The notes beneath the pieces are model-generated. The model was given only the letters and a program-made list of their open reading frames with translations, was not told the origin of the DNA and did not search any database. This document shows positions 1,751-44,406 of a DNA stretch of 44,954 nucleotides, piece by piece. Location of the stretch: the sequence record OZ503098.1. One strand, written 5' to 3'. The stretch is from a phage. The position numbers and the translations under genes were made by a program. Every line of letters begins with the position of its first letter. The stretch's first letter is position 1.

Positions 1751-1775
1751 AGGGGCCATACGGCCCCTTTTTAGT
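1751..1775. terminator. Hairpin terminator between convergent genes (tail fibre on + strand, leftward operon end on - strand)
   Basis: AGGGGCC-atac-GGCCCCT stem-loop followed by TTTTT on the plus strand; sits between stop 1745 (+) and stop 1771 (-). Confidence 0.6.
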
Positions 1776-2346: not shown

Positions 2347-2388
2347 TGTGAATCCCTCATTGATGCGGGCCGAAGCCCGCTATTAGCA

Positions 2389-2943: not shown

Positions 2944-3005
2944 TATGTTTTCCTTTTTAGCGGGGGCGGTATTGCCCCCGACGTGATTAAGATACTGCAA
3001 CCAAC

Positions 3006-3476: not shown

Positions 3477-3646
3477 TTTAATTCCGCCATTAAATTTTCA
3501 CGTACAATACGGGCCGAGAATGCGTCGCACACAAGATGGCAACTCGCCGTCATGACAAGCCAGTTAGGTCAAGGCCCAGCAATTGATGAGGTTGGCTTGC
3601 GCGCCTTACTTTATTTCCGGGGAAAACCTGGTAGCGTTTAATTATT

Positions 3647-4601: not shown

Positions 4602-4648
4602 CGTGTTGTCTCCAGGTATTAAAAAGGGCGTCCAAACCGGACACCCTT

Positions 4649-4677
4649 AATATAATGCAACCAATCTAATTATGCAA
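4649..4677 (-). promoter_or_regulatory. Sigma70-like promoter built from two direct ATTGGTTGCAT copies (TTGCAT, 17 bp spacer, TATATT); a GC hairpin (4626-4646) lies in the leader
   Basis: Minus-strand reading: ATTGGTTGCATaattagATTGGTTGCATTATATT; the first copy supplies the -35 and the -10 follows the second copy after a 17-nt spacer. Confidence 0.35.
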
Positions 4678-5005
4678 CCAATTTACGAATAAAATTTGGG
4701 TCGCGTGCAACGTCTACCAGATACAGGTTACTAATGCGGTTGCCGTAGTGCCCTGGTGTGCGCTGGCGGCACACAACGGCGAAGCCGGGAGGGATTGTAT
4801 TGCCAGTCTCGATAATCCACGCTACGCGCGCGCCAGATAGCGTCTTGCCGTTGCACTCGATGCGCGTGCCGCCATCGGCAGTGTTGAGGTTGCCAATCTT
4901 ACATCCGGTGGACTTCAGGCGAATGACGCCGGTCTTGCTGTCGTAGGAGAATAACTGGTTAGTCATTGCAACCGAAAAATCAATGGCCTCGAATGTAGTA
5001 TTCAT
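4670..5005 (-). CDS. HNH-like endonuclease (degenerate) / hypothetical protein
   Basis: 111 aa; FSYDSKTG...NGKTLSGARVAWIIETG...GHYGNRISNLYLV follows the layout of small free-standing phage HNH proteins; catalytic residues are not all canonical. Start overlaps the stop of the upstream gene. Confidence 0.4.
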   Translation of the reverse strand: MNTTFEAIDFSVAMTNQLFSYDSKTGVIRLKSTGCKIGNLNTADGGTRIECNGKTLSGARVAWIIETGNTIPPGFAVVCRQRTPGHYGNRISNLYLVDVARDPNFIRKLVA

Positions 5006-5697
5006 TTTAAATTTTCCTCATTGACTGCTATCGCGAAGCCGCGCGGGGTGAGTGAGCGGATTAATTTTGTACGAGCGGATTTACCACCGAGGCGACTATA
5101 CTGCGTCGAGTACCCTTTTTCAACGAAAACAGGTTTCTTCTCTGGCATACGGAAGCCGTTGCCGGTCCACAAGCAGGTCAGCTTCGGATATGAATCGCGG
5201 GCGTTGATGTATTCCGGGAAGAGCGGGTGTACGTCATCCTCCGGCAGATAGCCCCCATACTCCCACGGGTCAAACGAGTGGTCTGGCTTGCGCCATTGGG
5301 TTGATAGCACGCTGCGCGGATTCTCAATCATATATGGCACTTCGAAGAAGTCCCCCAGGTAAGCGGCGATCTTCGCGGTACGCACCGCCTTAAGCTGAAA
5401 GGCTGGGTCTTTTGCCCGCTTGCGCGGGAACGCTTGCGCACCGCTCACCGCCAGATCAGTACACGGCGGGAATGCGTAGATGATATCCGGCGTACCGAAA
5501 TCACCATTCATCGCGCGGTCTACAAAGTCCAGATCAATAAACTCATTGCGATATCGGATCCCACGACCATAAATCCGGTAGTCCAGGTACGACCCGTGAT
5601 CAGCTTCGGAGTAGTTGAAGCAATAACACTTATGCCCCATCTCGGCAGCACGCTCAATCATCAAGCCGCTGCCGTCAAATAATGACCAGATAATCAT
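5002..5697 (-). CDS. Compact C5-cytosine methyltransferase-like protein (231 aa)
   Basis: Motif I-like LFDGSG (FxGxG), motif IV-like FPPC (Pro-Cys) followed by LAVSGA, motif VI-like ENP; unusually short and without an obvious target-recognition domain. Translationally coupled to the helicase (ATGA overlap at 5694-5697). Confidence 0.5.
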   Translation of the reverse strand: MIIWSLFDGSGLMIERAAEMGHKCYCFNYSEADHGSYLDYRIYGRGIRYRNEFIDLDFVDRAMNGDFGTPDIIYAFPPCTDLAVSGAQAFPRKRAKDPAFQLKAVRTAKIAAYLGDFFEVPYMIENPRSVLSTQWRKPDHSFDPWEYGGYLPEDDVHPLFPEYINARDSYPKLTCLWTGNGFRMPEKKPVFVEKGYSTQYSRLGGKSARTKLIRSLTPRGFAIAVNEENLK

Positions 5698-7118
5698 TTG
5701 CGCGCCTTTTTAGCTTTCATGTATTCCATCAAATCGTCCTGAATATCGCGCTTACTGTCGCGACGCTCGGCGACCAGTTCGTCAAGTGTTCCGCGTGCCT
5801 GGATAATATAGACGAATACAGGACGGGGGTGTCCGGCTTGCATCTGGCGAACCGGCCCGATACGCTCCACGATCTGCGAAAAGTGCTCAAAGTTCCAGGT
5901 GTCTGAGAAGATAGCAAGGTGGTGCCCACCGTCCTGCAGGTTGAGGCCGTGGCCCGCAGATGCCGGGTGCGCAAACATGATGGGGATCTCGCCCCTGTTC
6001 CATGCTTCCATATCCTTATTTCCTTGCTTACCCTTACCCATCGCTACGCCGTGCGGGAATTTCTTCTTGAGACGCGCCAGGTCATGCTTGTACTGGTATG
6101 CGACGAGCAACGGTGCTCCGTTCAACTCCTCCACGATACTTTCCAGCGCGTCCAGTTTGGCGTCGTGGATTTTCACCCATTCGTCGGTGCGCTCGCCGTC
6201 TTCGTCGACTTTATACACGGCCCCGGAAGCAAGCTGAAGGCACTTAATAGTCTTCGACGCAGCGTTCGCCGCCTCCACTGTTCCGCTTTCCAGTTCCGCA
6301 AATAGCTCCGCTTCGAACTGGTCATAAATCTTGCGGGCTTTCTTCGGCAGGTCCACAACAACCGGCGTATATATTGGCTTGTCACATCCGAAATATTCAG
6401 CCGCATCAACGGTTAGCGACACGTCTGACAGGCGTTGTTGTATTTCTTTCTCGGAGTTTTTTAGCGGGGCGTGCTGCATAGTGAAGCTGCCAGGCTTAAC
6501 CGGCTTGCTAATAAACCAGCGGTCTGTGAATGCCTTATAACTACTGCCGAGGCGTTCGCCACCGTCTACAAACCACGTCTGCCCCCATAAGTCCTTCAGC
6601 CCGTTTGGTGCGGGTGTGCCGGTAAGGTTAATCCAGCGTTTGACGTGCTTATGCGCAATAGCCGCCAGCGCGCGGGCGCGCTTACTCCCCTGCTTGCTTC
6701 TATAGCCTTTCAGCTTAGTGGATTCATCGGCAACAACTACCGTAAAGGGCCACTCGTCGCCGCAATACTCGACAAGCCACTCAACCACATCATAGTTAAC
6801 GCAAACCACGTTAGCGTCGCTCTCGAGCGCCGCGATGCGGTCCTTCTCTGGCCCAGTGCCGTCTACTACCAGCAGGGCTGGGAAACGCCATTTCTCCTGC
6901 TCCGGTGGCCATGTACCGGACGCAACGCGAAGCGGGGCCAGCACCAGTACGCGGTCCTCCTGGCTGGACAGGATACCAGTCTGGAACATTTTATTCAGCG
7001 CCCACATAGTCGCGCCGGTTTTACCCGACCCCATTGTCGCCCATATATTGCATCGCTTATGTTTTAGGATGAACGCGGTTATCAACTTCTGATATTCGCG
7101 ACGTCGGAAACGTGCCAT
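5694..7118 (-). CDS. SF2 (SNF2/DEAD-like) DNA helicase
   Basis: Walker A GSGKTG, DEAD-like box VVADESTK, C-terminal helicase domain; start placed at ATG 7118 (MARFRRREYQ) with an upstream RBS-like GGCGGA. Confidence 0.7.
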   Translation of the reverse strand: MARFRRREYQKLITAFILKHKRCNIWATMGSGKTGATMWALNKMFQTGILSSQEDRVLVLAPLRVASGTWPPEQEKWRFPALLVVDGTGPEKDRIAALESDANVVCVNYDVVEWLVEYCGDEWPFTVVVADESTKLKGYRSKQGSKRARALAAIAHKHVKRWINLTGTPAPNGLKDLWGQTWFVDGGERLGSSYKAFTDRWFISKPVKPGSFTMQHAPLKNSEKEIQQRLSDVSLTVDAAEYFGCDKPIYTPVVVDLPKKARKIYDQFEAELFAELESGTVEAANAASKTIKCLQLASGAVYKVDEDGERTDEWVKIHDAKLDALESIVEELNGAPLLVAYQYKHDLARLKKKFPHGVAMGKGKQGNKDMEAWNRGEIPIMFAHPASAGHGLNLQDGGHHLAIFSDTWNFEHFSQIVERIGPVRQMQAGHPRPVFVYIIQARGTLDELVAERRDSKRDIQDDLMEYMKAKKARK

Positions 7119-7122
7119 ATCT

Positions 7123-7341
7123 TTATTCCGCCTTTTTCCAGACTTCGGTTTCACTGTTCCAGTTCCTTTTTGTGGCGTCGTAGTTGGTGGCGTGTCCGAT
7201 GTGGACACCGGTGGCCCGGAAGCGCTTAAACTTCTGCCAGCACACCGTCAACGGCAGCGGGGAATTAATGTCCGCGATAAACCATACGCGATCTCCTGGT
7301 TTACATTCGCCCAGCTTGGTGAGCCGGTAGCGTTCTTTCAT
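7123..7341 (-). CDS. Hypothetical small protein (72 aa)
   Basis: ORF with GGGAG RBS 8 nt upstream of ATG 7341. Confidence 0.35.
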   Translation of the reverse strand: MKERYRLTKLGECKPGDRVWFIADINSPLPLTVCWQKFKRFRATGVHIGHATNYDATKRNWNSETEVWKKAE

Positions 7342-7353
7342 CGTCATGTCTCC

Positions 7354-7377
7354 CAAAAATGGCGGGACAAGCCCGCC
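7354..7377 (-). terminator. Hairpin plus U-run on the minus strand (internal terminator or attenuator)
   Basis: GGCGGG-loop-CCCGCC stem followed by ATTTTT on the minus strand; the stem contains the GCGGGACA word used in the iteron arrays. Confidence 0.4.
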
Positions 7378-7384
7378 GTATTAA

Positions 7385-7558
7385 TTATTTTTGCTCTGCG
7401 CGGTAGCGGCGCTGCCGTTCGCGCTCTTTTTTATTGCGGCACGATTTGCACTCTGCCCGATACCCATCCGGGCTTCGCGCAGTCTTCCCGGTGTATTTAT
7501 GGAACTGTGATAGCGGTTTAACGCAGCCGCAATTACTGCAACGTTTTTCTTCAATCAT
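7385..7558 (-). CDS. Small zinc-ribbon protein (57 aa)
   Basis: CSNCGC...ECKSCRNKK gives two CxxC pairs and a basic C-terminus; GAGGA RBS before ATG 7558. Confidence 0.35.
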   Translation of the reverse strand: MIEEKRCSNCGCVKPLSQFHKYTGKTARSPDGYRAECKSCRNKKERERQRRYRAEQK

Positions 7559-7598
7559 CTCTAAAATCCTCGATATGGCTAACCGGCACACTATACCG

Positions 7599-7877
7599 CT
7601 ATGCGACCAATTCAGCAACCAATAAATCACAGTCGGCGATGTTGTCTATGACGCGAACGTCCGCACCGCGGCGGGCCATCCGCTCATGCTCGCGTACCTG
7701 GTGCGGCTTCGGTTTTCCGCCGGGGCGCTTCACTTCGACGAACACTATTTTGCCGTTGATGATGATAATCAGATCGGGCGCACCCGCGCGCCCCTCCCAG
7801 GCCATTTTGCGGCAGAATCCGCCTACCTCTTTCACCCGTCGCATCAGGTGACTTTGAATCTTGCCTTCTGGTGTCAT
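7599..7877 (-). CDS. VRR-NUC domain nuclease
   Basis: APDLIIIINGKIVFVEVKRPGGKPKPHQ matches the VRR-NUC PD-(D/E)xK core (D...E-V-K); ATG 7877 abuts the upstream stop. Confidence 0.6.
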   Translation of the reverse strand: MTPEGKIQSHLMRRVKEVGGFCRKMAWEGRAGAPDLIIIINGKIVFVEVKRPGGKPKPHQVREHERMARRGADVRVIDNIADCDLLVAELVA

Positions 7878-8476
7878 TGTCGGCTTCTCCTTACGGCAGC
7901 GATGGCGGGTCCGATAAACTTCCGCATTTCGTCCGGGGTAAACCGGTCGCCGCGGGCTATGTTGCACTCTACGCAGCACGGCACACAATTATCTTTAGTA
8001 TGTCCAACCGCATTGTTGAGTCTGTCCACTCCATTGTCGCCGGTGAATCCGCAATACGTACACGGCAGGGAAGTAAGGTGCAGAACGTCCTCGGTTGTTA
8101 GGTCGGTGCTTAACCCCTTCCTTTCGTCTGACTTGCGGTATTGAAAGAGTTTATAGTAGGCGCGGACCTCTGGTGTCCGGCGGTTGTACTCTCGGCGTGA
8201 CTTATTAGCGCACGACCGGCACTCTTTACGGATATGTGACTGGCTGGCCTTGTTTCCTGGGCGGAAGTTCTCCGGCGTAAGCGTCTTGCGCTCCCCACAC
8301 CGGCGACACGTTACGATCTCCCCAGTGTACTCTCGCCATACTTCGCGCGGCGGAGCGCCTCTTTCTTTGTCCCGTCTCTCTTTCTTATATGCCGCCATGC
8401 ATTTGGCGCACCACGACTGGCCCTTGTTGAAAGCGGACTCATCTTTATCCGTATTACAACGCCCACAATGTTTCAT
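7874..8476 (-). CDS. Cys-rich zinc-finger protein with HNH-like C-terminus
   Basis: Several CxxC pairs; C-terminal CTYCGF...VDRLNNAVGHTKDNCVPCCVECNIARG resembles an HNH/zinc-binding nuclease core. Start placed at ATG 8476 (MKHCGRCN) rather than 8584, which would overlap the polymerase gene. Confidence 0.45.
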   Translation of the reverse strand: MKHCGRCNTDKDESAFNKGQSWCAKCMAAYKKERRDKERGAPPREVWREYTGEIVTCRRCGERKTLTPENFRPGNKASQSHIRKECRSCANKSRREYNRRTPEVRAYYKLFQYRKSDERKGLSTDLTTEDVLHLTSLPCTYCGFTGDNGVDRLNNAVGHTKDNCVPCCVECNIARGDRFTPDEMRKFIGPAIAAVRRSRQ

Positions 8477-8543
8477 ATACACCCCCGAAAAAGAAAACGC
8501 CAGACAATAATGCCCGACGTTTCCGCTAAAAGCAACATTTCCG

Positions 8544-10835
8544 CTACTTGCGGTAGCGATACATGCAATCGCCTTCGGCGGCAAGAGGGAAGCCTTTCGC
8601 CCAAACAGGCAGGTCGCACATCAGCGCGCATAGCTCCTCGGTCGTGTAGTCGTCAGTATCCGGAACCTCGGTGATCAGTTCATCGTGTACGGACAGTACG
8701 ATCTCATACCCAGCAGCTTCAACGCCTGGCATGGACCATGCGAGAATATCGCGACACAGCGCCTGCACGATGTTTTCCGTCAGTTTGCCGCCGTAGGTAT
8801 ACTGGAAGCCCCACTGGCGCGTCGTCTGATTCTCGCCCTGGTATTTGATGCGGGTGCTGGTGCGCTTCTTGCCGGTGTCTTCGTCAATCTCGGTCGTGAC
8901 AGACAGCGCAATGCCTGGATAACTCATAATACGCCCCGACGGCAACTCAATTTTCAACCACCACCCTGCGGCGTTCGGGTCGTCGCGCTCCTCGTCGAAG
9001 GTTGGGTCATGCTTCGCCTTCGTGCGAACAATCTTAAGCGCTTTCCTGCCATCCGGGCGAACGTTCGCACCCGCCCAGTATGCTTTGCCAGGATTGCGGA
9101 TCGCGCAGAGCACCGCGTCTTCCAGTTCAGCCCAAAATGCTACCGTCTTAGGGTGAGCCTCGCGCCACATACGTTTGATCGCGTCACACGTCAACCACAC
9201 GTTTTTCGGCAGTATGTAAGTTGGGCGCTCGTCTTTCTTGCCAGGCTTCGGCGGGCGCTTGGCTTCGTTAATGCGGGCATACTCATAACCACGTTTCGCC
9301 GCGGCCCAAATATGATCGGGGAATGTGCCCTTCATGACGTCCGCCATCGCATACAGGTCGAGGCCCAGGTTTTTAGCAAACTGCAGGAACGCTGCAACAC
9401 CGCCACCATAGCCCAACCCCAATTCGCACGCCTTACCAATCTGGCGCAAGTCTTTGCAGTTGGCTTTGATGTATTCCGGGTCGAGGCCAAACATCTTACC
9501 GGCAGTTTCACAATAGATATCGCGACCCGCCCTGAACACCATTAGCGCGGTTTTCTCCCCCGCGATCCAGGCGAGGCCACGCCCTTCCACGTTGGAGAAG
9601 TCAGCTACGACAAACTTCTTACCCTTCGCCGGAATAATGCACCCGCGAACAGTCGAGGCCGTTAGCTTCGATATGTCATACGCCCAGTGCGCTGTCCCGC
9701 GTAACAGGGAGTTGATGCCGTTGGTAAGCATGTGCGACCGCACCCAAAACGCGACGTCGCTCTCGCCTTCACGGCGTTTAATCTTCCCTTCGTGGTCGTC
9801 GCTATACTCGCCGCGTGCCAGGTTTTGCGGCTGGAAGCCTTTGCCGGCCCAGCGTAGCGTGCGTTTTGCCCCGCCATACTGGAGACAACCACGGCGGCGA
9901 CCATCGGCAGACAGCCCATTTACGAGCGGATTGTACTTAGTAGATGCCGTTGATGACGCGCCGAGGCGCATCTCGATAAGCACTTTGCCCTCGTCGGGGA
10001 AGTCCGGGTCTTCCAGCAGTTCGTTAAGCGTGGATTTCTGCGCGTTGTGTATTGTGAACGCAGGCGCGAGGTCGCGCAGCGCTGGCAGGAAGTCATTGCC
10101 GGTCAGCTTACCGCCGAAGCGCTCCCATGCTTCTTCCTTCAATTCTTCCTTATGCGCCTGCACCGCTTTGATCGCGGCGTTAGCCAGGTCAACGTCCACA
10201 TAGAAGCCGCGGTCGTTAATCATCTGGTCAATAAGCAGGATTTCATCTTCCTTCGGCGTGTTGCCCCAGTCTGGTATGCGCCAGTAGACTTCACGCATAG
10301 CAACAATATCCAGCGCGGCGTAGCGCAGGAATTTAGCCCACTCCTCGGGGTGCGTCTCGCGCGTATAGCGACGGATTTTGTAGGTCTTAGGGGTTGGCTT
10401 ACAGAATCGTTTGATTAGCGCCTTGCCAGCCTTATCCTTCGCGTGTTCTGCGTCAACGCCCAACACCTGGCACTGCATATCGAGGCTACCTGGCAGCGCG
10501 TGTCGAAAGGCCATAATCATGGTATCTTCGATCTGGCCTACCGGCAGGTCAATGCCCCACTTCTCGCGAATAACCAGGCGGTCAAACAGGAGGCCGTTAG
10601 CCATCACGATTTTTGCTTTCTTGCGGGATACCCGGCGGAGCGCCTTGCGCAGTTCACGCGGCATTGTGGGGGACTCGGTGCAATCCCATGTCTGCACGCG
10701 GCCCTCGTCGATGGCGTATGTGCAAATCATAATCTCGGTAGTTGGGTGTTCCGCGTAGGCGTATGCGCCCACTTTCTTCAGATCCACCCCGCTAAATGTC
10801 TCGGTATCGAGGAAAAGGCGTTCGAAGTCTTTCAT
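8544..10835 (-). CDS. DNA polymerase I family (family A) with 3'-5' exonuclease domain
   Basis: 763 aa; exo motif FLDTETFSG near the N-terminus, motif B-like RQIGKACELGLGYGGG, motif C VHDE (SVHDELITEV). Confidence 0.85.
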   Translation of the reverse strand: MKDFERLFLDTETFSGVDLKKVGAYAYAEHPTTEIMICTYAIDEGRVQTWDCTESPTMPRELRKALRRVSRKKAKIVMANGLLFDRLVIREKWGIDLPVGQIEDTMIMAFRHALPGSLDMQCQVLGVDAEHAKDKAGKALIKRFCKPTPKTYKIRRYTRETHPEEWAKFLRYAALDIVAMREVYWRIPDWGNTPKEDEILLIDQMINDRGFYVDVDLANAAIKAVQAHKEELKEEAWERFGGKLTGNDFLPALRDLAPAFTIHNAQKSTLNELLEDPDFPDEGKVLIEMRLGASSTASTKYNPLVNGLSADGRRRGCLQYGGAKRTLRWAGKGFQPQNLARGEYSDDHEGKIKRREGESDVAFWVRSHMLTNGINSLLRGTAHWAYDISKLTASTVRGCIIPAKGKKFVVADFSNVEGRGLAWIAGEKTALMVFRAGRDIYCETAGKMFGLDPEYIKANCKDLRQIGKACELGLGYGGGVAAFLQFAKNLGLDLYAMADVMKGTFPDHIWAAAKRGYEYARINEAKRPPKPGKKDERPTYILPKNVWLTCDAIKRMWREAHPKTVAFWAELEDAVLCAIRNPGKAYWAGANVRPDGRKALKIVRTKAKHDPTFDEERDDPNAAGWWLKIELPSGRIMSYPGIALSVTTEIDEDTGKKRTSTRIKYQGENQTTRQWGFQYTYGGKLTENIVQALCRDILAWSMPGVEAAGYEIVLSVHDELITEVPDTDDYTTEELCALMCDLPVWAKGFPLAAEGDCMYRYRK

Positions 10836-11002
10836 TGCTTAATCCTCACTACGGCGTCAGCGCTGCCGATCATGGAGAATATACCGTCGGAAAGGGTTAT
10901 CTCCTCGCCGTTGTTGCGAACCTCGGCAACGGTGAAATATTCCCCCAGTAGCTTGGACCATACCCGCATTCCGACTTTTACTTCGCTGGCTTTAATGCGC
11001 AT
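10832..11002 (-). CDS. Small hypothetical protein (56 aa), coupled to the polymerase gene
   Basis: Not in the ORF track (under 60 aa): ATG 11002 with AGGA RBS, translation MRIKASEVKVGMRVWSKLLGEYFTVAEVRNNGEEITLSDGIFSMIGSADAVVRIKQ; its stop overlaps the polymerase ATG. Confidence 0.35.
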   Translation of the reverse strand: MRIKASEVKVGMRVWSKLLGEYFTVAEVRNNGEEITLSDGIFSMIGSADAVVRIKQ

Positions 11003-11017
11003 TTTTCATTGTCCTAT

Positions 11018-11041
11018 TAAAAAGCCCGCATTAAGCGGGCT
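11018..11041 (-). terminator. Rho-independent terminator on the minus strand after the SSB-like gene
   Basis: Minus-strand AGCCCGC-uuaau-GCGGGCU followed by UUUUU, immediately after stop 11061. Confidence 0.55.
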
Positions 11042-11060
11042 TGAATAGTGGGCTTTGCCC

Positions 11061-11849
11061 TTAACGGCGGCGACGTTTGCGTGGCGCTTCGTCTTCGTCG
11101 TCGTCCTCATCTTCGTCATCGCGTGGCTTACGACGTTTGCGAGGTTTTTCATCTTCCTCATCGTCGTCGTCATCGCGGCGCTTGGACTTTTTGGACTTGC
11201 GCGGCTTGTCATCTTCATCATCGTCATCACGACGTTTTGACTTCTTAGCCTTGCGCGGTGCTTCGTCTTCGTCTTCGTCGTCGTTGTCCAGGTCTTCATC
11301 GGAGCAAGAAGAACCACCACCACCGAAGGATTCGCCGTCATCGCGGAAGCGCAGACCCAGCAAGCCAGCACCGAGTCCCTTGCCGTTGGTATTGTTCCAC
11401 GCCCAGATATCGAGTGACACGTTGCAATAACAACCGGAGTAGATCTCCTGGCCTTCGATCTCGTCGCCGTCGATGGTCAGGCCTTGTTCAGTCTGCTTCT
11501 CGCCGAGTGACGTTTGAATGATCGGCTGTTTGAACGATTTAGCGTTGATGTACAACATGCCTTCGAATTCTTCGGTTACTTCATCGCGCTCGTCGCCGTC
11601 GCGAACTGCGCATTCCTTAGAATCCTGGGCGTAGTGGCGGTCCATCCACTTATCGGCATTCTTCTCAGATTTCAGCTTGTCGGTGAGCACTGCGCGCGCT
11701 GCCGCTTCCACTTTGTCCACCTGCGGATCTTCTTTATCCAGAAGAATCACGGCGCGGTATGCTGGTTTTTGTCCATCCTGTTTAGGGGTATCACGTTCCC
11801 AAATTTTCAGGAAACATACGCGCACATTTTTCAGGTTGACTTTAGCCAT
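11061..11849 (-). CDS. Putative single-stranded DNA-binding protein (DUF2815-like) with a long acidic/basic repeat tail
   Basis: N-terminus MAKVNLKNVRVCFLKIWE resembles the DUF2815 phage SSB-like N-terminus; located next to a DUF2800-like nuclease and PolA. C-terminal about 80 aa are three reiterations of DDDDEDD / KPRKSKKSKRR blocks. ATG 11849 has a GAGGAA RBS. Confidence 0.45.
   Translation of the reverse strand: MAKVNLKNVRVCFLKIWERDTPKQDGQKPAYRAVILLDKEDPQVDKVEAAARAVLTDKLKSEKNADKWMDRHYAQDSKECAVRDGDERDEVTEEFEGMLYINAKSFKQPIIQTSLGEKQTEQGLTIDGDEIEGQEIYSGCYCNVSLDIWAWNNTNGKGLGAGLLGLRFRDDGESFGGGGSSCSDEDLDNDDEDEDEAPRKAKKSKRRDDDDEDDKPRKSKKSKRRDDDDDEEDEKPRKRRKPRDDEDEDDDEDEAPRKRRRR
11080..11290. repeat. 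In-frame tandem repeat (about 60-bp units, three copies) encoding the acidic/basic tail of the SSB-like protein
   Basis: Repeated GTC/GTCGTC/ATC and CTT/TTT/GCG runs at DNA level; the protein shows the RRDDDDEDDKPRKSKKSKRRDDDDDEEDEKPRKRRKPRDDEDEDDD periodicity. Confidence 0.5.
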
Positions 11850-11939
11850 TTTCCAATTCCTCATTTTCACATGTATCGGGGTTATTGGAAGCCACCCCGT
11901 TCGGCTTGGTTGCTAATCTACTTGGTTGCGCCTGAGCGG

Positions 11940-12182
11940 TCAAGCATTTTCGTTAAAAAGATTTCGGGTAACGTAGTTGGTAGCGTTCTCGATCCAGCTT
12001 AGCGGCGGTCGGTCGATGTTCTTTTCCACCCAATCGACGGCAACTTCGCTATAGCCGTCATCCAGCCAGCGGGTCGGATGGCGAATCATCCACGCCACCA
12101 TTAACACGCCTTGCACGCAATGCAGGATAAAGCCCAGCGCGCCGAGCAAAAACATCAATAAGATTGCGAATACTTTATTCAT
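11940..12182 (-). CDS. Small membrane protein (80 aa)
   Basis: Two hydrophobic segments (FAILLMFLLGALGFIL and VLMVAWMI); starts 2 nt after the upstream stop. Confidence 0.45.
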   Translation of the reverse strand: MNKVFAILLMFLLGALGFILHCVQGVLMVAWMIRHPTRWLDDGYSEVAVDWVEKNIDRPPLSWIENATNYVTRNLFNENA

Positions 12183-13605
12183 TGCTTAAGTCCTCATCAG
12201 TGGCTTCAGACCACACAGGGCGCGGGTCGTCTATTGGGGCTAATACCGGTTTAGCCGGTGCGCGCGTGATTTTATCACACAGCTTCGCCCACACTTTCGG
12301 TTTTTCGTCCTTCAATACCTTCTCGGCATCCGTAGGGCTGAGCAATGTTTCTTTGTACATCACATCGCGCTTGATCCGGGCCTTCGTGAAGATTTCAATC
12401 ACTTCGCTCTCGTCCGCCCACTTACGGATCCCTTCCTTACCGGCAACCATCTTGAGGCCCAGCGATTCGCCATCGCCCGCCATGACCGCCTTGAATACCG
12501 CGGACTCGATAGCCTTGATGTGCTGGCGCATTGCGTCCAGGCCTTCATAAGCCTTGCGCAGTTCCGCAGCGCTCATAGCACCGGGGGCCGCTTCTTTCTT
12601 ACCACGCTTCGCACGTCGTGCCGCCTTCCTGGCTTCGCGGGCTATATTGCGGTCATGGTTGGCGCATTCTTCCTCTGTCGCAATACTCACGTCGTCGCCC
12701 AGGTCTTCGTCGGTTGCCGTTGGGTGTGTCATCGTGTCGATTGCGGCCTTAGCGCGGGCACTACACTGATCCGCAAATCGGCACCACTGGCACGCATCAA
12801 CGCTGGGGCGGAAGTCGGCACGGGTAAGCCCCTTCTTGCCTCGGGAATACGACTCCAGTGCGGCGATAGCACGCTTGGATGCGAACTTCGCGAATATCTC
12901 CAGCGCTTCTACCGAAATATCCCACTCCGACGCCCCGCCGCAATACGGCTGGAAGATAACCAGTCGCACGGTCGTAATGTCGTACATAGTTTGCAGCTTG
13001 CGCAGCAGGCCGAGCGCGTACAACATAAGCTGTTTGTTCTCTTTCGCCTCGACCTTATGACGCCCGGTCTTCAGGTCGCCAACAATCAGCATGTACGTCC
13101 CATCGGTCTTTTTCATGACCATGACCATATCGGCAGTACCGAACGTTTTAATCCTGTTGCCGTCGATCTCGTAGCCTGAGTGAAGGACGCGGGTCAGATC
13201 GGCGTGCATCTCAAGCTGAACAAACTCCGCCACTTCGATGAGCGGTCGCCAGTGGTCTATGTACGCGTCGCACTGTTTCACCATGTCGTCGTTGACCAGT
13301 ACGCCGCCTTTCGGTGCTTTCGGGTGTGCCTTTACCGGCCCCTTGCCTTCGTTCTCGACGTAGCACCCTTTATACGTCTTCGCGGTTATCAGCTTCTCAC
13401 CGGCTATAATGCGGTTTAGCACCACCTCCGATACGGTGTGCATACTCGTACCGTTAATCGCGGCTTGCCCGGATTCGTTCGGGATATCTTTTTCTACCAC
13501 CAGGGCGGCTGGGCAACCCATCCATTTTTTAGCACCGGATGGCCCGAGTAATGAGTGTTCCGTATTGCTGCCGGATTGCGTCTTACGTTTTGGTTTAATC
13601 GCCAT
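12175..13605 (-). CDS. DUF2800-like PD-(D/E)xK (Cas4/RecB-like) nuclease
   Basis: N-terminal LLGPSGAKKWMGCPA matches the characteristic DUF2800 opening (SxSGAxRWxxCP); C-terminal Cys cluster (CQWCRFADQC); paired with the DUF2815-like gene. Confidence 0.55.
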   Translation of the reverse strand: MAIKPKRKTQSGSNTEHSLLGPSGAKKWMGCPAALVVEKDIPNESGQAAINGTSMHTVSEVVLNRIIAGEKLITAKTYKGCYVENEGKGPVKAHPKAPKGGVLVNDDMVKQCDAYIDHWRPLIEVAEFVQLEMHADLTRVLHSGYEIDGNRIKTFGTADMVMVMKKTDGTYMLIVGDLKTGRHKVEAKENKQLMLYALGLLRKLQTMYDITTVRLVIFQPYCGGASEWDISVEALEIFAKFASKRAIAALESYSRGKKGLTRADFRPSVDACQWCRFADQCSARAKAAIDTMTHPTATDEDLGDDVSIATEEECANHDRNIAREARKAARRAKRGKKEAAPGAMSAAELRKAYEGLDAMRQHIKAIESAVFKAVMAGDGESLGLKMVAGKEGIRKWADESEVIEIFTKARIKRDVMYKETLLSPTDAEKVLKDEKPKVWAKLCDKITRAPAKPVLAPIDDPRPVWSEATDEDLSNE

Positions 13606-13793
13606 TATTCCACCCGTGTAAATTGAGCAATGTAATAGTCATGTTCAACATTGGCCCGCTTAGCGGCATTGTTCATGGTAGCCGCCAGCCCCAGGGCTTG
13701 CATCCAGCAGCAATTCCAGTTTTGATTCATAACAATTTCCGGTTGCTCGTCGCCGGTAATACGGCAACGAAATAAAACAAAGAATATAGCCAT
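13605..13793 (-). CDS. Hypothetical small protein (62 aa)
   Basis: ORF with GGGAG RBS before ATG 13793; stop overlaps the next ATG (TAATG). Confidence 0.35.
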   Translation of the reverse strand: MAIFFVLFRCRITGDEQPEIVMNQNWNCCWMQALGLAATMNNAAKRANVEHDYYIAQFTRVE

Positions 13794-14045
13794 TTATTTT
13801 GTCTCCCAGCGGTCAATCGTTCTTGCTTCGGATGCAACCGCGAAGCGAACATATTCCAGATTGGAGTCTGCCCAAATATAAAAGTCGGGGTTAGTAAAGG
13901 TGGTGCGCTTAATTTGCGCGGGTGTGTTACGGCGTTTATCTATTACCGCAACGCGGGATTGAAAGCTGCCGATGCGTTCGAATAGCCAATAGTACGGGCG
14001 CTGGTCGCGGGAATCCACCGCCTCGATTAGCGTGAAGCGTGCCAT
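13794..14045 (-). CDS. Hypothetical protein (83 aa)
   Basis: ORF with ATG at 14045; no motif recognised. Confidence 0.45.
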   Translation of the reverse strand: MARFTLIEAVDSRDQRPYYWLFERIGSFQSRVAVIDKRRNTPAQIKRTTFTNPDFYIWADSNLEYVRFAVASEARTIDRWETK

Positions 14046-14057
14046 TGTCTCGTCCTC

Positions 14058-14085
14058 TAAAAATAGGCCCGCAGATTAGCGGGCC
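14058..14085 (-). terminator. Hairpin plus U-run on the minus strand inside the early leftward operon
   Basis: Minus-strand GGCCCGC-uaaucu-GCGGGCC followed by UAUUUUU; lies between stop 14094 and start 14045. Confidence 0.4.
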
Positions 14086-14093
14086 GGATAATA

Positions 14094-14219
14094 TTAATCT
14101 TCACCGCCGAGTTGTTTATAAACCTCGTCCGGGTCGTCGCCTCTTTCTTCGCAGAAGGCGGTGAATGCCGCCCAATTTTCTGCTATGAAATCGAGCATGA
14201 TTCTCATTTCATAGTCCAT
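14094..14219 (-). CDS. Hypothetical small protein (41 aa)
   Basis: Internal ATG 14219 of the 14094..14435 ORF (MDYEMRIMLDFIAENWAAFTAFCEERGDDPDEVYKQLGGED), starting just after the stop of the upstream gene at 14224. Confidence 0.3.
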   Translation of the reverse strand: MDYEMRIMLDFIAENWAAFTAFCEERGDDPDEVYKQLGGED

Positions 14220-14223
14220 GATA

Positions 14224-14769
14224 TTAATCTTCCAGTTCGAAATAAGTTTCGACGATTTCTTTAAGATCTTTGTGGAAGTCTTCGACGTCTTCATCTTCCA
14301 GCTTGGCGATTGATTTGATCTCAAACGATTCCAGCAGGTCGTCAAATTCGTCGTTCGCGTCGTCGTCGTCACCACCCGCGATAATAGCGGCGTACTGTTT
14401 GATTTCGTCGCGCATCTCTGCCAGCGGGTCGGCATCTTTCTTACCTTTGCCTTTCGCCGGTGCTTTTTTACCCTTCGCGGGCTTCACGTCATCGGCATCA
14501 TCGTCGTCGTCGTCATCTTCTACGACTTCTTTTTTGGCCTTGCCTTTAGACTTGGTTTCTTTTGCCGCGCCTTTTTTCGTTTTAGGCGTATCTTCGACTT
14601 CGTCCTGATCGTCGTCGTCTTCGACTTCAGTCTCCGGCTTGGCCTTGCCTTTCTTAGCAGTGCCGTTTGCTTTTGGGTCTACGGCAGCGCCAACGGTTTC
14701 ATAATGCTTAGCGATGGTTTCCAGTGCTACTACGCCGCGAGTAATCAGGTTTACGATTTGTTCAAACAT
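14224..14769 (-). CDS. First leftward early gene: highly charged low-complexity protein (181 aa) with alternating poly-Asp/Glu and Lys-rich blocks
   Basis: ATG 14769 with GGAGATATACC RBS; EVEDDDDQDEVEDTPKTKKGAAKETKSKGKAKKEVVEDDDDDDDADDVKPAKGKKAPAKGKGKK; first gene downstream of the divergent control region. Confidence 0.55.
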   Translation of the reverse strand: MFEQIVNLITRGVVALETIAKHYETVGAAVDPKANGTAKKGKAKPETEVEDDDDQDEVEDTPKTKKGAAKETKSKGKAKKEVVEDDDDDDDADDVKPAKGKKAPAKGKGKKDADPLAEMRDEIKQYAAIIAGGDDDDANDEFDDLLESFEIKSIAKLEDEDVEDFHKDLKEIVETYFELED

Positions 14770-15033
14770 GGTATATCTCCGATTGGTTAAGTTTGGCGTC
14801 CGGGCGGTATGCCCGGTCGACGAGGGAGATATTAGATTGGTTGCAGAAGGGAGTCAACAACTAATTTCAAAAAAAAGCGCCGAGGCAAAATGCAACGGCG
14901 CTAACCAATAAGAGACAATGAGACGGGAATTATTATTACACGCGTGCGCGCCCGTTTCAATATTCCAAAGAAGTTGACACCCTACGGTTTTAGGTGTAGT
15001 TTCGTTGGTCATTAACCAACCGAGGACAGAGCA
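14770..15033. promoter_or_regulatory. Divergent early control region: leftward promoter (about 14932-14960, TTGAAA-17-AATAAT on minus), rightward promoter (about 14974-15002, TTGACA-17-TAGTTT), leader hairpins at 14800-14816 and 14867-14902
   Basis: Only place where the two strand blocks diverge; consensus TTGACA -35 on plus; back-to-back -35 elements 14 bp apart flanking palindromic ACGCGT/GCGCGC words; minus-strand hairpin AGCGCCG...CGGCGCU followed by U8. Confidence 0.5.
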
Positions 15034-15363
15034 ATGAATGTAAACGACGCAATCGAAATGTTAACGAAGACTGTTAGCAGTGAAACAAGCCGGTCATGGG
15101 CGTATACCGATGCCGTGGGTGCGGTGCTATTTGAAATCGAACGTCTGCGACTTACCGAAAAAGAATTGCGCGCGAAGCTGGAATTACTCAACGGTACTGC
15201 AGCAAGCAAGCTGCAAAAGCACAATGAAGAAATGGAAGAATACAAAAAGCAGGTTATCCGTTTGCGCGCCGAGGGCAAATCCTGGGCGATGATTGCCGAG
15301 TTGACCGGAATTAATCAGAGCACTGTGCGCTCCTGGGTGCGCAATAATAAAACTTCCAAATAA
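15034..15363 (+). CDS. Helix-turn-helix DNA-binding regulator (sigma-70 region 4 / LuxR-type HTH at the C-terminus)
   Basis: C-terminal RAEGKSWAMIAELTGINQSTVRSWVRNN is a typical HTH (region-4-like); N-terminal coiled-coil-like segment; GAGGA RBS; first gene of the rightward block. Confidence 0.6.
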   Translation: MNVNDAIEMLTKTVSSETSRSWAYTDAVGAVLFEIERLRLTEKELRAKLELLNGTAASKLQKHNEEMEEYKKQVIRLRAEGKSWAMIAELTGINQSTVRSWVRNNKTSK

Positions 15364-15367
15364 GGCT

Positions 15368-17638
15368 ATGACCATGAGTTTAATTAAATTCGCAGTAACA
15401 AGACCCGCTAAAAAAGGCGAAAAAGCCAGGGCGGAAAACTTCCAGATGACCACCGATGAATTTTTCGAATTTATCAAAGATGCGAAAGAAATCTCCTCGG
15501 TGCATATCAATAAGACGGAAGATAAAGCCGAGTATGCGCGCCGCAAGCGTAAGGCCGATGGCATCGTGGCATATACCAGTGACGGCCTTCGCCGCAAGAC
15601 CAGTGCGGTGGACCGCTCGATCCTGTTCTTCGATATTGACCGTACCGACACCCGCACCCTACGCCGCTGCCGTAAGGCGTTCATTGACGCGGGTCTGGAA
15701 CACGTATTTCACACCACAACCGGCGACCGTCACCCACTGAAAGGAGGCACGCGTTGCGCCCGTTTCCTGGTGTTAACTGACAAGCCTGTACCGGCTGAAG
15801 ACCTGGGCCGCGTCCAGTATGCACTATTACACCAACTGGGTCTGTCAGATGTGGACTTCGACGATTGCACGAAAGACACAAACCGCCTGATGTACCTGCC
15901 TCACCAGCAGTCTGTTATTAAGTGCCACTACGGCAAGCGCGCCCGCGTCCGCCGTCTGCTCCGCCTGGCTGATAAGCTGGGAGTTGAGAAAGAGGAAGTA
16001 CGCCGCGAGCTTACCCAGGGCGACGACGCAGTGGCAGACGGCATTCTGGACTGGTGCTTCCAGGCAGGATTCGAGGAGTTATCTTCCGGGCGGGGCTTTG
16101 AAGTGCCGTGCCCGAACGAACATCTGCACAGCGGCGAAGGGTCGACGGCTATCATGGTCAAGGATGGCGAGATCCGTTTCAAGTGTATGCACACCGGCAA
16201 CGAGTGTTGCTCTGAACTGAATAGACACCAACACCTGGCGCTACGTCTTATCGGCATCCCGGACCACCTGAACGTCGAGCCACACAATATGTCCCGTAAG
16301 CAAATCGCCGCCATCCTTCCGGGGCTGGACGACGAGGAAGTCGAATCCTTATATGAACATATTGTTGATGCGGTTGGCGACGGCGAAGAATACGGCGTGT
16401 GCACCGATGCGGATCTGGATAACGAGCCGGTCGCGCTGTTCAGTAAGCACGACACGATTATCGAGGGGTTGATTAACTTTAAATCGACCTGGTACATGGC
16501 GGGTGAGTCGAATATCGGTAAGTCTTTCTATGTGCTGGGCCAAATGGGCGCGGTTGCCGCCGGTATTCCGTTTGGTGGTGCGAAGGTCGTCCAGTCTCAT
16601 TGCTTCTATTTCGACGCGGAAGGTGGCGAAGCCTCCAACCAGCGTAAAGAAGCATTGCAGATTAAATACGAGCACGACCTGGACAAGCTGCACATTATAG
16701 ACCTGCAGTCACGCGGCTGGGATATCACCAGCAAGTCCGGCTTGCGCGAAGTTATCAGTTTTATCAACCGCACCGCTAACGGCGAGCCGGTTGGCCTGGT
16801 GGCGTTCGACTCACTCAACCAGACTGTTGCGTTGCGGTCCGCCGAGGCTAAACCGTTCGACGAGAACAACGCCAGCGATATGGGCGAAGTGGTCAAAGCG
16901 CTGAAGGCCATCGCGGAAAACACAGGTGGCAGTGCGGGCGTCATTCACCACCCGGCGAAAGGTGCAAACGGCAGCAGAACCCCACGCGGGTCCGGCGCGC
17001 TGCATGGTGCTGTCGATTCCGCTTTCTTCCTGGAACAGCCGGACGACAACCAGCCCGGACAATTGAACCTGTATCACGAAAAGTCACGTAACGGCATCAA
17101 GCAAGCGCCGCGCGGCTTCGTCCTGCTCAAGTGCAAAGTTAAGGTGGATCTCCGCAAGTCAGAAGCGTTCGAGGCGCACCAGTCCACCAGCACCGGGCCA
17201 GACTTCGGGGATGTGGTTGCCGGTTGGGACGTCAAGCCGATCGCCTCCACGCCACGCGACGAGACTCTCTACCTCGTACCGGTTGCCCTGGCACCGTTCG
17301 CTATTGAACAGGCGAAGGCGGCAGGCAAGGCCGCGGTTAAGGAAGAGAACACCGCCGGACCGCGCAACGGAAAAGAGAAAGTGCTTTATGCTGCACTGGA
17401 AAAACTGATGGAAGATAACCCGGACCATACTGGATTCAGTAAATCGGCGATTGTCCGCCAGGCGGGACTCGCGAAAGGTGGCACGTCGACGAAGGCAATC
17501 GACGATATGGTGGAGCGCGGCGTGATAGGTTTTTACACCGATCCGCACACCGGGGCCATCTATGGGTCGTCTAATTTGGTCATCAAATCGGATATCCCAA
17601 TCACGCTTTCAGCGACCGATGAAGACTTAAAAGATTAA
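15368..17638 (+). CDS. Primase-helicase: archaeo-eukaryotic-type primase-like N-terminal domain fused to a RecA-like P-loop NTPase
   Basis: N-terminal LFFDIDRTD (acidic DxD-type motif), central Cys/His cluster (CPNEHLHSGEG...CMHTGNECC), C-terminal Walker A GESNIGKS and Walker B-like LVAFDSL. Confidence 0.7.
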   Translation: MTMSLIKFAVTRPAKKGEKARAENFQMTTDEFFEFIKDAKEISSVHINKTEDKAEYARRKRKADGIVAYTSDGLRRKTSAVDRSILFFDIDRTDTRTLRRCRKAFIDAGLEHVFHTTTGDRHPLKGGTRCARFLVLTDKPVPAEDLGRVQYALLHQLGLSDVDFDDCTKDTNRLMYLPHQQSVIKCHYGKRARVRRLLRLADKLGVEKEEVRRELTQGDDAVADGILDWCFQAGFEELSSGRGFEVPCPNEHLHSGEGSTAIMVKDGEIRFKCMHTGNECCSELNRHQHLALRLIGIPDHLNVEPHNMSRKQIAAILPGLDDEEVESLYEHIVDAVGDGEEYGVCTDADLDNEPVALFSKHDTIIEGLINFKSTWYMAGESNIGKSFYVLGQMGAVAAGIPFGGAKVVQSHCFYFDAEGGEASNQRKEALQIKYEHDLDKLHIIDLQSRGWDITSKSGLREVISFINRTANGEPVGLVAFDSLNQTVALRSAEAKPFDENNASDMGEVVKALKAIAENTGGSAGVIHHPAKGANGSRTPRGSGALHGAVDSAFFLEQPDDNQPGQLNLYHEKSRNGIKQAPRGFVLLKCKVKVDLRKSEAFEAHQSTSTGPDFGDVVAGWDVKPIASTPRDETLYLVPVALAPFAIEQAKAAGKAAVKEENTAGPRNGKEKVLYAALEKLMEDNPDHTGFSKSAIVRQAGLAKGGTSTKAIDDMVERGVIGFYTDPHTGAIYGSSNLVIKSDIPITLSATDEDLKD

Positions 17639-17719
17639 TTTTTGCGCGCATTGGTTGCCAAATTGCGTGCTTTTAGGTGGTCGTATTGGTTGCCGTGTAG
17701 TGTAAATATAGTGAATAGT

Positions 17720-17905
17720 TATGCAATAAAACTGCATAAACTAAGCGGGACAAAAAGCGGGACAGACAGGAGGCGGGACAAAGCGGGACAGCACCCCTGT
17801 CCCGCCCCGGATGACGCGGCCTGGCGAGGAGCGGGACAGCGGGACAGCACCCCAGTCTTTCAGACTAGACGGGGGGTCTGGCACCCCCCTCGTCTGAGAC
17901 TGCAT
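17720..17905. repeat. Iteron/hairpin array 1: at least six direct GCGGGACA copies, inverted TGTCCCGC copies and a G6/C6 hairpin, preceded by TGCATAAA
   Basis: GCGGGACA at 17745, 17757, 17773, 17783, 17831, 17839; inverted copy at 17798; AGTCTTTCAGACT palindrome and GACGGGGGG-tctggca-CCCCCCTCGTC hairpin at 17853-17895. Non-coding (the TTG-start ORF 17642..17998 is rejected). Confidence 0.7.
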
Positions 17906-18061
17906 AAAATCCGGGATTGCATAATACACGGCAACATGATGCAAATTGCGGTCGTCGGTGAACTAGGCAACCAATGCGAGTTGCAGAATGGTGGGTGAAA
18001 AATGCAGTTTGCAGTCACAGCAGATAGCGATCGACTTTTTCATACGCGTGATTAATATTGG

Positions 18062-18090
18062 TTGCACCCGCCCTGGCACCCTGCTATATT
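18062..18090 (+). promoter_or_regulatory. Sigma70-like promoter TTGCAC-17-TATATT embedded in two ATTGGTTGCAC motif copies, upstream of gene 18119
   Basis: -35 TTGCAC 18062-18067, 17-bp spacer, -10 TATATT 18085-18090; motif copies at 18057-18067 and 18088-18098. Confidence 0.45.
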
Positions 18091-18118
18091 GGTTGCACAC
18101 CAACATGAGGACTGAACA

Positions 18119-18421: not shown

Positions 18422-18691
18422 ATGGACCGCAGACGCGCTAAACGGCTTTCGTGGCATATTCCACTGCATTGCATACGAATATGGGCTAAGAATGCGAATG
18501 AGGGCGATTCTGTGTTCTGGTGCTATCGCGACGATGTGAAGCCACTAACGCAGACTCGCTACTTGCACCAGTTCGCCAGGGAGCATGGGTTAGCCATAAA
18601 AACGTCCTTGCAACCAATTGGCATTCGTATTACATTACGCCGGAAGCCCACCGTTGAGCGGGTAGGTAAACACTGGAGACTGAGCAAATGA
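18422..18691 (+). CDS. Hypothetical protein (89 aa)
   Basis: ATG with AAGGGG RBS. Confidence 0.5.
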   Translation: MDRRRAKRLSWHIPLHCIRIWAKNANEGDSVFWCYRDDVKPLTQTRYLHQFAREHGLAIKTSLQPIGIRITLRRKPTVERVGKHWRLSK

Positions 18692-21045: not shown

Positions 21046-21071
21046 AGCCCGGATAATACCGGGCTTTTTAT
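21046..21071 (+). terminator. Rho-independent terminator after the lysis cassette
   Basis: AGCCCGG-ataat-ACCGGGCT followed by TTTTT. Confidence 0.6.
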
Positions 21072-21074
21072 TGC

Positions 21075-21104
21075 TTGACTCGCAACCAACATAGGGGCCA
21101 TACT
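21075..21104 (+). promoter_or_regulatory. Promoter-like element TTGACT-18-CATACT overlapped by two (T)GCAACCAA(T) motif copies
   Basis: Motif copies sit in the spacer and at the start site, i.e. operator-like placement; precedes a strong GGAGGAG RBS. Confidence 0.35.
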
Positions 21105-21133
21105 GCAACCAATCAACTGGAGGAGTAATCAAG

Positions 21134-28316: not shown

Positions 28317-28345
28317 TTTTGTGTCCTCGTTGTTGGTGTGCAACC

Positions 28346-44385: not shown

Positions 44386-44406
44386 CCAATTTAAGAGGAT
44401 TTAGCT

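Follow-up and report, generated by a model that had tools for sequence, protein, structure and literature searches.

A predicted early promoter hub with a candidate small-RNA gene between the divergent gene arms of a Dhillonvirus

How are the two divergent gene arms of a phage read from the one short gap that lies between them? The question is raised by a phage sequence of 44,954 nucleotides (record OZ503098.1; here called the window, meaning the whole stretch of DNA that was analysed, in which all positions are given). In this window, open reading frames on the minus strand extend from 1771 to 14769, including those for a DNA polymerase and a DUF2800/PD-(D/E)XK nuclease, and open reading frames on the plus strand extend from 15034 to about 43 kb. 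The 264 bp at 14770-15033 form the single point at which the leftward and rightward arms diverge. With 80-95% identity, the stretch 14200-15400 finds matches in 155 phage records, almost all from Dhillonvirus phages of Escherichia or Shigella (among them HK578, SO-1, JL1, SSL-2009a, and EP23), and the window is, judged by its sequence, that of a Dhillonvirus, i.e., an HK578/SO-1-like lytic siphophage of E. coli. An initial annotation had described the gap as a divergent control region with back-to-back promoters, and this view is supported. The promoter elements are indeed present where the gene arms diverge, and their hexamers are invariant in 18 relatives. The answer favored here, with an estimated probability of about 0.45, is that the gap would serve as an early promoter hub with three host promoters, in which one leftward promoter (P1-left) and a terminator would make up a free-standing gene for a base-pairing small RNA, and a second leftward promoter (P2-left) would drive the leftward gene(s).

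For comparison, homologous gaps were gathered from phage records, IMG/VR contigs and metagenome contigs, which gave 46 loci and 26-27 distinct sequences. Percentages of variable columns refer throughout to a set of 18 relatives picked by BLAST or protein similarity, independently of the motifs in the gap. One metagenome contig (OQVL01056812.1; L077) was excluded as an assembly artefact, in which Dhillonvirus sequence is joined to an Illumina adapter (GATCGGAAGAGCGTCGTGTAGGGAAAGAGTGT) within the terminator hairpin. A 17-mer scan of metagenomes returned mostly chance matches, together with about 12 further Dhillonvirus contigs.

Three predicted promoters in the gap

Host sigma-70 RNA polymerase would read the gap from three promoters, all of them with hexamers near the consensus and 17-nt spacers. 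The rightward promoter (P-right, plus strand) is of the sigma-70 type, with TTGACA at 14974-14979, TAGTTT at 14997-15002, and a predicted start at about 15009. It would initiate the rightward operon, which comprises the gene for a helix-turn-helix (HTH) protein followed by that for a primase-helicase. On the minus strand, P1-left combines TTGAAA (14960-14955) with the extended -10 element TGtAATAAT (14940-14932; TG at 14940-14939, hexamer AATAAT at 14937-14932), and its predicted start lies at about 14925/14924. The third promoter, P2-left, was found as a scan match on the same strand (TTGACT at 14857-14852, TAATAT at 14834-14829, predicted start at about 14822) and had been missed by the initial annotation, whose two promoters both stand. 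Scored against the sigma-70 consensus, P1-left reaches 10/12 with its TG, the best value of the scans, and the other two reach 9/12 each. In P-right, this score is made up of 6/6 in the -35 and only 3/6 in the -10, and the promoter was for that reason not listed by the scan.

Because consensus matching alone does no better than chance (3 promoter-like sites in 3 kb against 2.8 expected), the case for these promoters rests on position and conservation. As to position, 3 of the 14 comparable promoter-like sites found on both strands of the window fall, correctly oriented, within the 264-bp gap. As to conservation, the hexamers have been kept selectively. No column varies (0%) in the -35 of P1-left, in its TG and -10, or in the -35 and -10 of P-right, and the share of variable columns is 62% in the 13 bp between the two -35 hexamers, 53% in the P-right spacer, and 83% in the 6 nt (14926-14931) between the P1-left -10 and the transcribed block. 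The flanking genes show 35-45%. The switch from variable to invariant sequence at 14926/14925 fits a P1-left start at this point. P2-left is also present in all relatives, and its -10 differs only at inner positions (TAATAT, TATTAT, TATCAT), with T1, A2, and T6 kept. In fact, the RefSeq record of HK578 (NC_019724) carries the same three promoters, two leftward and one rightward, assigned by consensus; that genome has no other annotated promoters, and its gap carries no annotation of a terminator, a small RNA, or the GCAACCAAT motif. With elements of this kind, conserved in this way, all three promoters would be expected to fire.

Some details of the initial annotation have to be adjusted. It had placed the two -35 elements, TTGAAA and TTGACA, 14 bp apart; both hexamers are there, and the distance between them is 13 bp (14961-14973). 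It had also put the words ACGCGT and GCGCGC between the two -35 elements. These actually lie side by side inside the P1-left spacer (14940-14945 and 14946-14951), and they were rejected as functional words, being common (20 and 45 copies in the genome) and mutating freely in relatives. The same spacer contains 14 nt of strict purine/pyrimidine alternation (14938-14951; ACACGCGTGCGCGC), and this alternation is always kept in relatives, where all substitutions are transitions and the sole indel removes a 2-nt unit. It may be due to chance, or it may mark a supercoiling-sensitive (Z-DNA-prone) spacer between divergent promoters.

The TTGACA of P-right has been retained even in HK578 and the metagenome contig L098, where all the sequence downstream of it is replaced and the -10 reads TAGTAT. 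Compared with the window (14980-15363), these two relatives (HK578: L018 1655-2145) show a block swap that takes in spacer, -10, and leader and reaches through the N-terminal two thirds of the protein with the HTH. The boundary of this allele swap lies at the P-right -35 hexamer, and the part that is still related is the C-terminal HTH only, with 49% identity.

A predicted terminated RNA of about 55 nt

Just downstream of P1-left, on the minus strand, lies a hairpin (14902-14876) whose stem of 7 and 3 bp is interrupted by a 2x2 internal loop and capped by a UUU loop; eight U come next (14876-14869). Its folding energy is -16.4 kcal/mol (z = -3.9), and none of 200 shuffled sequences folds as well; a simple terminator scan had missed it owing to the internal loop. 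The element has a U-run after the hairpin on the minus strand only, and is in this sense one-directional. All 10 pairs of the stem hold in each of the five sequence variants found in relatives. Two of the pairs carry double substitutions (GC to UA, GC to CG), a third went from AU to GU, and the remaining substitutions lie in the internal loop; the U-run is 8-14 nt long. A GC-rich hairpin with a U-run and compensatory changes in the stem is what an intrinsic terminator should present, and the hairpin would be expected to terminate transcription efficiently.

The transcript of P1-left would stop at this strong terminator, with its interrupted GC-rich stem of 10 bp and its U8, and would give an RNA of about 55 nt only (14869-14925, minus strand), made up of CGUCUCAUUGUCUCUUAUUGGUUA, the hairpin, and the U8 tail. 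Minimum-energy and centroid folds both leave 23 nt unpaired before the hairpin, and the single-stranded 5' part (24 nt, 14925-14902) has 8% variable columns, against the 35-45% of coding DNA. P1-left and the terminator would thus form a free-standing gene built like those of bacterial base-pairing small RNAs, and in fact the candidate has the marks of the Hfq-type class, namely, its own promoter, a conserved single-stranded seed, and a terminator with a long U tail. No Rfam family matches at gathering thresholds anywhere in the window, and searches at permissive E-values with the gap and with a long-leader relative gave sub-threshold noise only (best 23 bits, against a threshold of 72). A 20-mer from the 5' part, CCAATAAGAGACAATGAGAC, has no exact match in the GTDB species genomes.

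In the initial annotation, the hairpin with its eight U was taken for a possible attenuator before the first early gene. This proposal is not supported as it stands, since the -35 of the conserved P2-left begins 11 bp past the U-run, which places this promoter after the terminator and before the gene, and the first leftward gene is therefore independent of read-through. Neither are the features of a classical attenuator present: the 23 nt upstream of the hairpin offer no anti-terminator pairing, and no leader frame survives the 1-2-nt indels of relatives. Instead of regulating the first early gene, the hairpin most likely forms the end of a highly conserved RNA of its own, about 55 nt long. 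Two other reading frames in the gap, one of 52 codons on the minus strand (14854-15012) and one of 19 codons on the plus strand from 14919, were discarded as genes, both being broken by indels of 1-2 nt in relatives. Several records annotate hypothetical proteins inside the promoter gap, and their frames are not conserved.

P2-left would express the first leftward gene(s), probably using an A/T-rich tract as its upstream element. In fact, the conserved A/T-rich sequence at 14858-14876, which includes the T-run of the terminator, sits where an UP element of P2-left would be expected, and the part between the T-run and the P2-left -35 (14858-14869) has only 8% variable columns. The unit driven by P2-left would end at a second intrinsic terminator (14085-14066, minus strand), which follows the first leftward gene(s) and consists of a GGCCCGC-loop-GCGGGCC hairpin and five U; its stem is invariant in relatives and its loop varies freely. 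The Shine-Dalgarno sequence of the next gene starts within a few nucleotides of this U-run, and there is no room for a promoter there; read-through is therefore required for the distal leftward genes. For the hairpin terminator, no minus-strand gene is found between it and about 43 kb to its right, which leaves P1-left as the only promoter nearby from which leftward transcription could come.

The leftward leader was said to contain two hairpins, one of them followed by eight U. Both are present. The other one (hairpin 2; 14797-14819, minus strand) is a CCGGGC-5 nt-GCCCGG stem-loop near the 5' end of the P2-left mRNA, and it is weak (z = -1.8 in a 63-nt context). It occurs only in relatives with a short leader, most of which carry a mismatch in it, and shows no compensatory changes; it is missing from the L014/LM40P1 clade, and in most relatives a structured leader of 204 nt takes its place. 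Because it has no U-run, hairpin 2 is not a terminator, and it may stabilize the P2-left mRNA. Leader length is in itself variable in the genus. The distance from P2-left to the first gene is 203-206 nt in most Dhillonviruses (for example, L001 3532-3735 in phage welsh, L018 1311-1514 in HK578, and 16 other distinct relatives) vs 67 nt in the window. The long leader is 97% identical across relatives and has several helices (RNAalifold, -45.8 kcal/mol), with one pair represented by three types (AU, UA, and CG). No Rfam family matches this leader, and it does not code for protein; the idea that it is an in-frame N-terminal extension of the first leftward gene was dropped, as the frame is broken in the 206-nt variants. 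It may be a structured leader RNA of an undescribed kind.

Possible targets of the RNA and alternative readings

The RNA would act through pairing of its 5' stretch with the ribosome-binding regions of early phage mRNAs, the best target candidates being the first gene of each arm, leftward and rightward, together with the gene at 14045-13794. In the first case, the start region (14770-14790, minus strand) reads UUAACCAAUCGGAGAUAUACC-AUG, and the 5' part of the RNA is complementary both to the TAACCAAU box in it and to its Shine-Dalgarno sequence. At the DNA level this appears as an inverted repeat, 14776-14789 with 14902-14915, and at the RNA level as 16 positions with one mismatch against UAACCAAUCGGAGAUA. 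The predicted duplex has -17.2 to -18.0 kcal/mol (RNAduplex), and values of -17 to -18 are found in nearly all relatives. The start region of the first rightward gene gives -17.0 kcal/mol in the window and -17 to -20 in most relatives, and the gene at 14045-13794 has a perfect 9-nt match to the RNA over its start codon. For random 43-mers of the sense strand the mean is -10.4 +/- 3.2 kcal/mol, and 3.3% of them reach -17. Pairing with the ribosome-binding regions of the neighboring genes is on these grounds only suggestive. A sliding RNAduplex scan of both strands was not useful for choosing targets, its top sites being GC-rich coding sites and not start regions.

Several observations weigh against the small-RNA reading. 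When 57 translation start regions of the phage are ranked, those on either side of the gap come only 6th and 7th. Perfect matches to the RNA of 8-11 nt occur across the phage genome at chance frequency; for its 5' part, 23 8-mer and 4 9-mer matches were counted genome-wide, against about 23 and 5.5 expected (our own estimate), which is the chance level. In the L014/LM40P1 clade, where both partners have changed, the left duplex weakens from -18 to -13.8 kcal/mol, with no clean compensation. The covariation in the terminator stem comes from a single lineage. Likewise, the invariance of the 5' part of the RNA could equally reflect a role at the DNA level or in nascent RNA (nut-like). As to targets in the host, a BLAST search of 5,426 E. 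coli genomes with the RNA gene as query gave no match, by a method that is blind to matches shorter than about 20 nt and is uninformative on this point.

The alternative ranked second, after the small-RNA reading, and considered rather unlikely, is a refined form of an idea from the initial annotation, namely, that the hairpin is a regulated terminator or a point of entry for processive antitermination. Early on, the transcripts of P1-left and P2-left would stop at the hairpin and at 14085-14066, respectively; later, a phage factor riding on the polymerase from P1-left would recognize the invariant 23-24 nt of nascent RNA as a nut-like site and read through both terminators, so that the distal leftward replication genes are expressed and the 55-nt RNA is a by-product of the unmodified state, comparable to the lambda 6S RNA from PR'-tR'. 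This scheme would explain why a strong promoter lies upstream of a second one, why the transcribed 5' block is invariant and why there are two terminators, the second of them with an invariant stem and followed by genes that, with no room for a promoter, need read-through. Moreover, the order of a CUCUUA stretch, a 7-nt spacer, and a hairpin resembles the boxA-spacer-boxB arrangement of lambda nut sites, with 6/8 matches to CGCUCUUA. However, with its 8-14 U the hairpin looks like a strong terminator of the canonical kind, whose UUU loop and internal loop are unlike a boxB pentaloop, and no alternative anti-terminator fold was found. Four neighboring proteins were screened against Pfam and PHROGs without a match to any antiterminator family, and none is annotated in HK578 or SO-1. 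P-right is without a comparable element, and the second terminator has only five U, so that simple partial read-through could suffice.

It is a little less probable still that the conserved features act as DNA and not as RNA. In such a case, P1-left and the terminator would tune the neighboring promoters, by competition or supercoiling coupling with P-right 13 bp away, as a polymerase sink, or through the T-run as upstream element and insulator for P2-left, and boxes of the AACCAA type (14782-14790, 14836-14844, 14902-14910, and 15005-15019) would bind a phage regulator, e.g., the HTH protein, that coordinates all three promoters. Consistent with this, the 9-mer GCAACCAAT is strongly over-represented in the genome and lies nearly always between genes, with one copy in the P2-left spacer; a 15-bp palindrome, TTGGT-N5-ACCAA, spans the predicted start of P-right and, together with ACACC-N11-GGTGT, occurs only with the 109-aa allele of the HTH protein; and the stretch from the T-run to the P2-left -35 is nearly invariant. 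A role in DNA nevertheless leaves without explanation why the 24 transcribed nucleotides are far more conserved than the promoter spacers, and why the stem shows compensation of the RNA type, including AU to GU. In addition, the boxes of the gap are of the form TAACCAAY, a class distinct from GCAACCAAT (three of the four TAACCAAY sites in the 45-kb window are inside the gap), and HK578 retains boxes a, b, and c even though the identity of its HTH protein, over the C-terminal part, is only 49%. Finally, the short transcript could prime or activate DNA replication beside the primase-helicase gene. The unit is close to this gene and has an A/T tract and repeated short boxes, but a hairpin terminator releases the RNA and leaves no stable hybrid, the gap holds no iteron arrays, and repeat-rich non-coding regions exist elsewhere (17639-18118 and about 33880-34210, flagged as special regions in the SO-1 record), all of which makes an origin in the gap highly improbable. 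These two regions, "region B" and "region A" of SO-1, respectively, are rich in direct and inverted repeats of the GCGGGACA type and are 84% alike over 179 nt. They are better candidates than the gap for origin or packaging functions.

The small-RNA reading can also be compared with systems of known kind. Base-pairing small RNAs of the Hfq type have their own sigma-70 promoter, a single-stranded 5' seed, a U/A-rich stretch and a Rho-independent terminator with a U tail of at least 8 nt. The Dhillonvirus candidate has all these structural features; on the other hand, its pairing with phage start regions lies just within the top 3% of random sites, and it belongs to no Rfam family. In phage lambda, a strong promoter with a nearby terminator is found in the PR'-tR' unit of the 6S RNA, on which Q acts, and in the pL and pR units, in which nut sites and terminators are acted upon by N. 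The arrangement described here is similar in that a strong promoter and a near terminator would give a short RNA, the first early gene is followed by another terminator, and a CUCUUA stretch, a spacer, and a hairpin succeed each other; it differs in that no homologue of Q or N was found among the four neighboring proteins or in the HK578 annotation, a second promoter lies past the terminator, and the hairpin is itself the terminator, without a boxB-like loop. Another lambda example is the OOP RNA, a terminated transcript of 77 nt that is antisense to the cII transcript. Like OOP, the candidate would be a small phage RNA with its own promoter and intrinsic terminator in the early/replication region; unlike in OOP, nothing on the opposite strand overlaps its gene, and its action must therefore be in trans, or in cis on read-through RNA. 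In virulent Pseudomonas phages, short RNAs ended by terminators just past promoters have been detected by ONT-cappable-seq (Putzeys et al., 2024; PMC10914365). These transcripts are abundant and conserved within a phage genus, and one of them lies upstream of a primase/helicase gene (PMC10914365). Here, too, an intrinsic terminator is found within tens of nucleotides of the promoter. However, in the Pseudomonas phages one promoter serves both the short RNA and the gene downstream of it, with two modes of read-through (PMC10914365), whereas in the Dhillonvirus gap P2-left lies between the terminator and the gene; moreover, those RNAs were detected experimentally and the Dhillonvirus RNA is predicted only, and there is no sequence relationship between them.

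The 9-mer motif, the flanking genes, and what the gap may mean for the genus

The copy of GCAACCAAT in the P2-left spacer (14836-14844, minus strand) lies 1 nt from the -10 and is invariant in 26 distinct relatives. It is one of 15 exact copies in the window, where 0.41 +/- 0.62 would be expected; with one mismatch, 27 copies are found against 12.6 expected. Of the 15 exact copies, 14 are intergenic according to our own gene map, and many come in pairs beside promoter-like hexamers. The 15 copies are found at 3008-3016, 4657-4682, 7603-7623, 11905-11929, 14836-14844, 17650-18096, 18610-18618, 21082-21113, 28340-28362, and 44382-44390, and these positions are conserved in HK578 and SO-1. For example, at 11943-11905, where TTGACC and TAGATT are separated by a 17-nt spacer, one copy abuts the -10 and another lies just past it; at 21070-21113, the order is TTGACT, a copy of the motif, CATACT, and a second copy. 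Five copies fall in the repeat-rich region that follows the primase-helicase gene. The motif is probably the binding site of a phage regulator, as its number and placement suggest, and the copy in the spacer probably puts P2-left under a DNA-binding regulator of the phage, for which the neighboring HTH protein is the obvious candidate. No paper mentioning this 9-mer in a phage context was found, and literature searches on Dhillonvirus transcription, on the HK578 promoters, and on the 9-mer in phages yielded nothing relevant.

The HTH protein is encoded by the right flanking gene (15034-15363, plus strand), which is followed by the primase-helicase gene (15368-17638, plus strand). It has 109 residues, and its C-terminal 40 form the helix-turn-helix, with matches to HTH_23, HTH_28, and Sigma70_r4_2 (E of about 1e-6 to 1e-7). 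By tblastn, the family is found in this genus only: the search returned the same 155 Dhillonvirus records and no more distant relatives. In relatives, the protein is labelled as transposase, resolvase, or "DNA recombination nuclease inhibitor gamma," the sole domain evidence being a generic HTH. The leader of its gene (15005-15033, plus strand) carries the palindrome TTGGT-N5-ACCAA (15005-15019) over the predicted start, and TTAACCAACCGAGGA comes next, ahead of the ATG. With the start inside it, the palindrome cannot fold into a hairpin in the RNA; a hairpin of the right leader was accordingly rejected as an RNA structure (z = 0.1, no better than shuffles, with the predicted start inside the left arm). 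It is a candidate operator, and the rightward leader is a weaker candidate target of the small RNA. A second inverted repeat, ACACC-N11-GGTGT, is found at 14977-14997. Both repeats are absent from HK578 and L098, and their association with the 109-aa allele hints at autoregulation, but it may only reflect the block swap.

On the left, the flanking gene (14769-14224, minus strand) codes for an acidic, lysine-rich protein of 181 residues (PHROG 3127) for which no Pfam family was found. Blocks of poly-Asp/Glu alternate in it with Lys-rich blocks, and the length of the repeats differs among relatives, phage welsh having a repeat_region annotated inside. Given that its gene is the first early one, the protein could act as a DNA mimic or in anti-defence. 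Between this gene and the second terminator, a small extra open reading frame (14094-14216, minus strand; MDYEMRIML...) is present in the window and a few relatives (L001-L003 and L015) and missing from most others. A temperate-phage switch, with repressor/Cro and shared operators, was considered for the gap and rejected: the flanking genes code for the acidic protein and the small HTH protein, and no repressor or integrase is listed in the annotations of HK578 and SO-1, in agreement with the initial annotation, which had noted neither.

Divergent promoters are ordinary, and those of the gap were already annotated in the relative HK578. To judge by the searches made, neither the terminated small-RNA unit nor the 9-mer motif has been described before; each belongs to a known kind, with a function that is proposed here from sequence features. 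One speculative proposal, which must be held as doubtful, is that the invariant RNA of about 55 nt and GCAACCAAT would be the two arms of an undescribed circuit. The RNA would pair with the ribosome-binding regions of the first genes in several transcription units or serve as a nut-like loading site by which polymerase gets past both leftward terminators, and the approximately 15 sites would be the regulon of the HTH protein, timing early versus late transcription with no need for an RNA polymerase or sigma factor of the phage.

These findings are of interest because Dhillonviruses are among the most often isolated phages of E. coli, are used in phage-therapy and anti-defence studies, and share this early control region in at least 155 genome records. 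Two problems of annotation are corrected, namely, the spurious "hypothetical proteins" of the gap and the naming of the HTH protein as transposase, resolvase, or Gam-like inhibitor on thin evidence. The region also offers parts for the engineering of Dhillonviruses, i.e., strong host-type promoters and a tight terminator, as predicted here. Finally, the early control region as mapped here, with three promoters and two terminators, a single candidate small RNA, and a putative binding motif that recurs throughout the genome, would provide a route to the first regulatory model for the genus.

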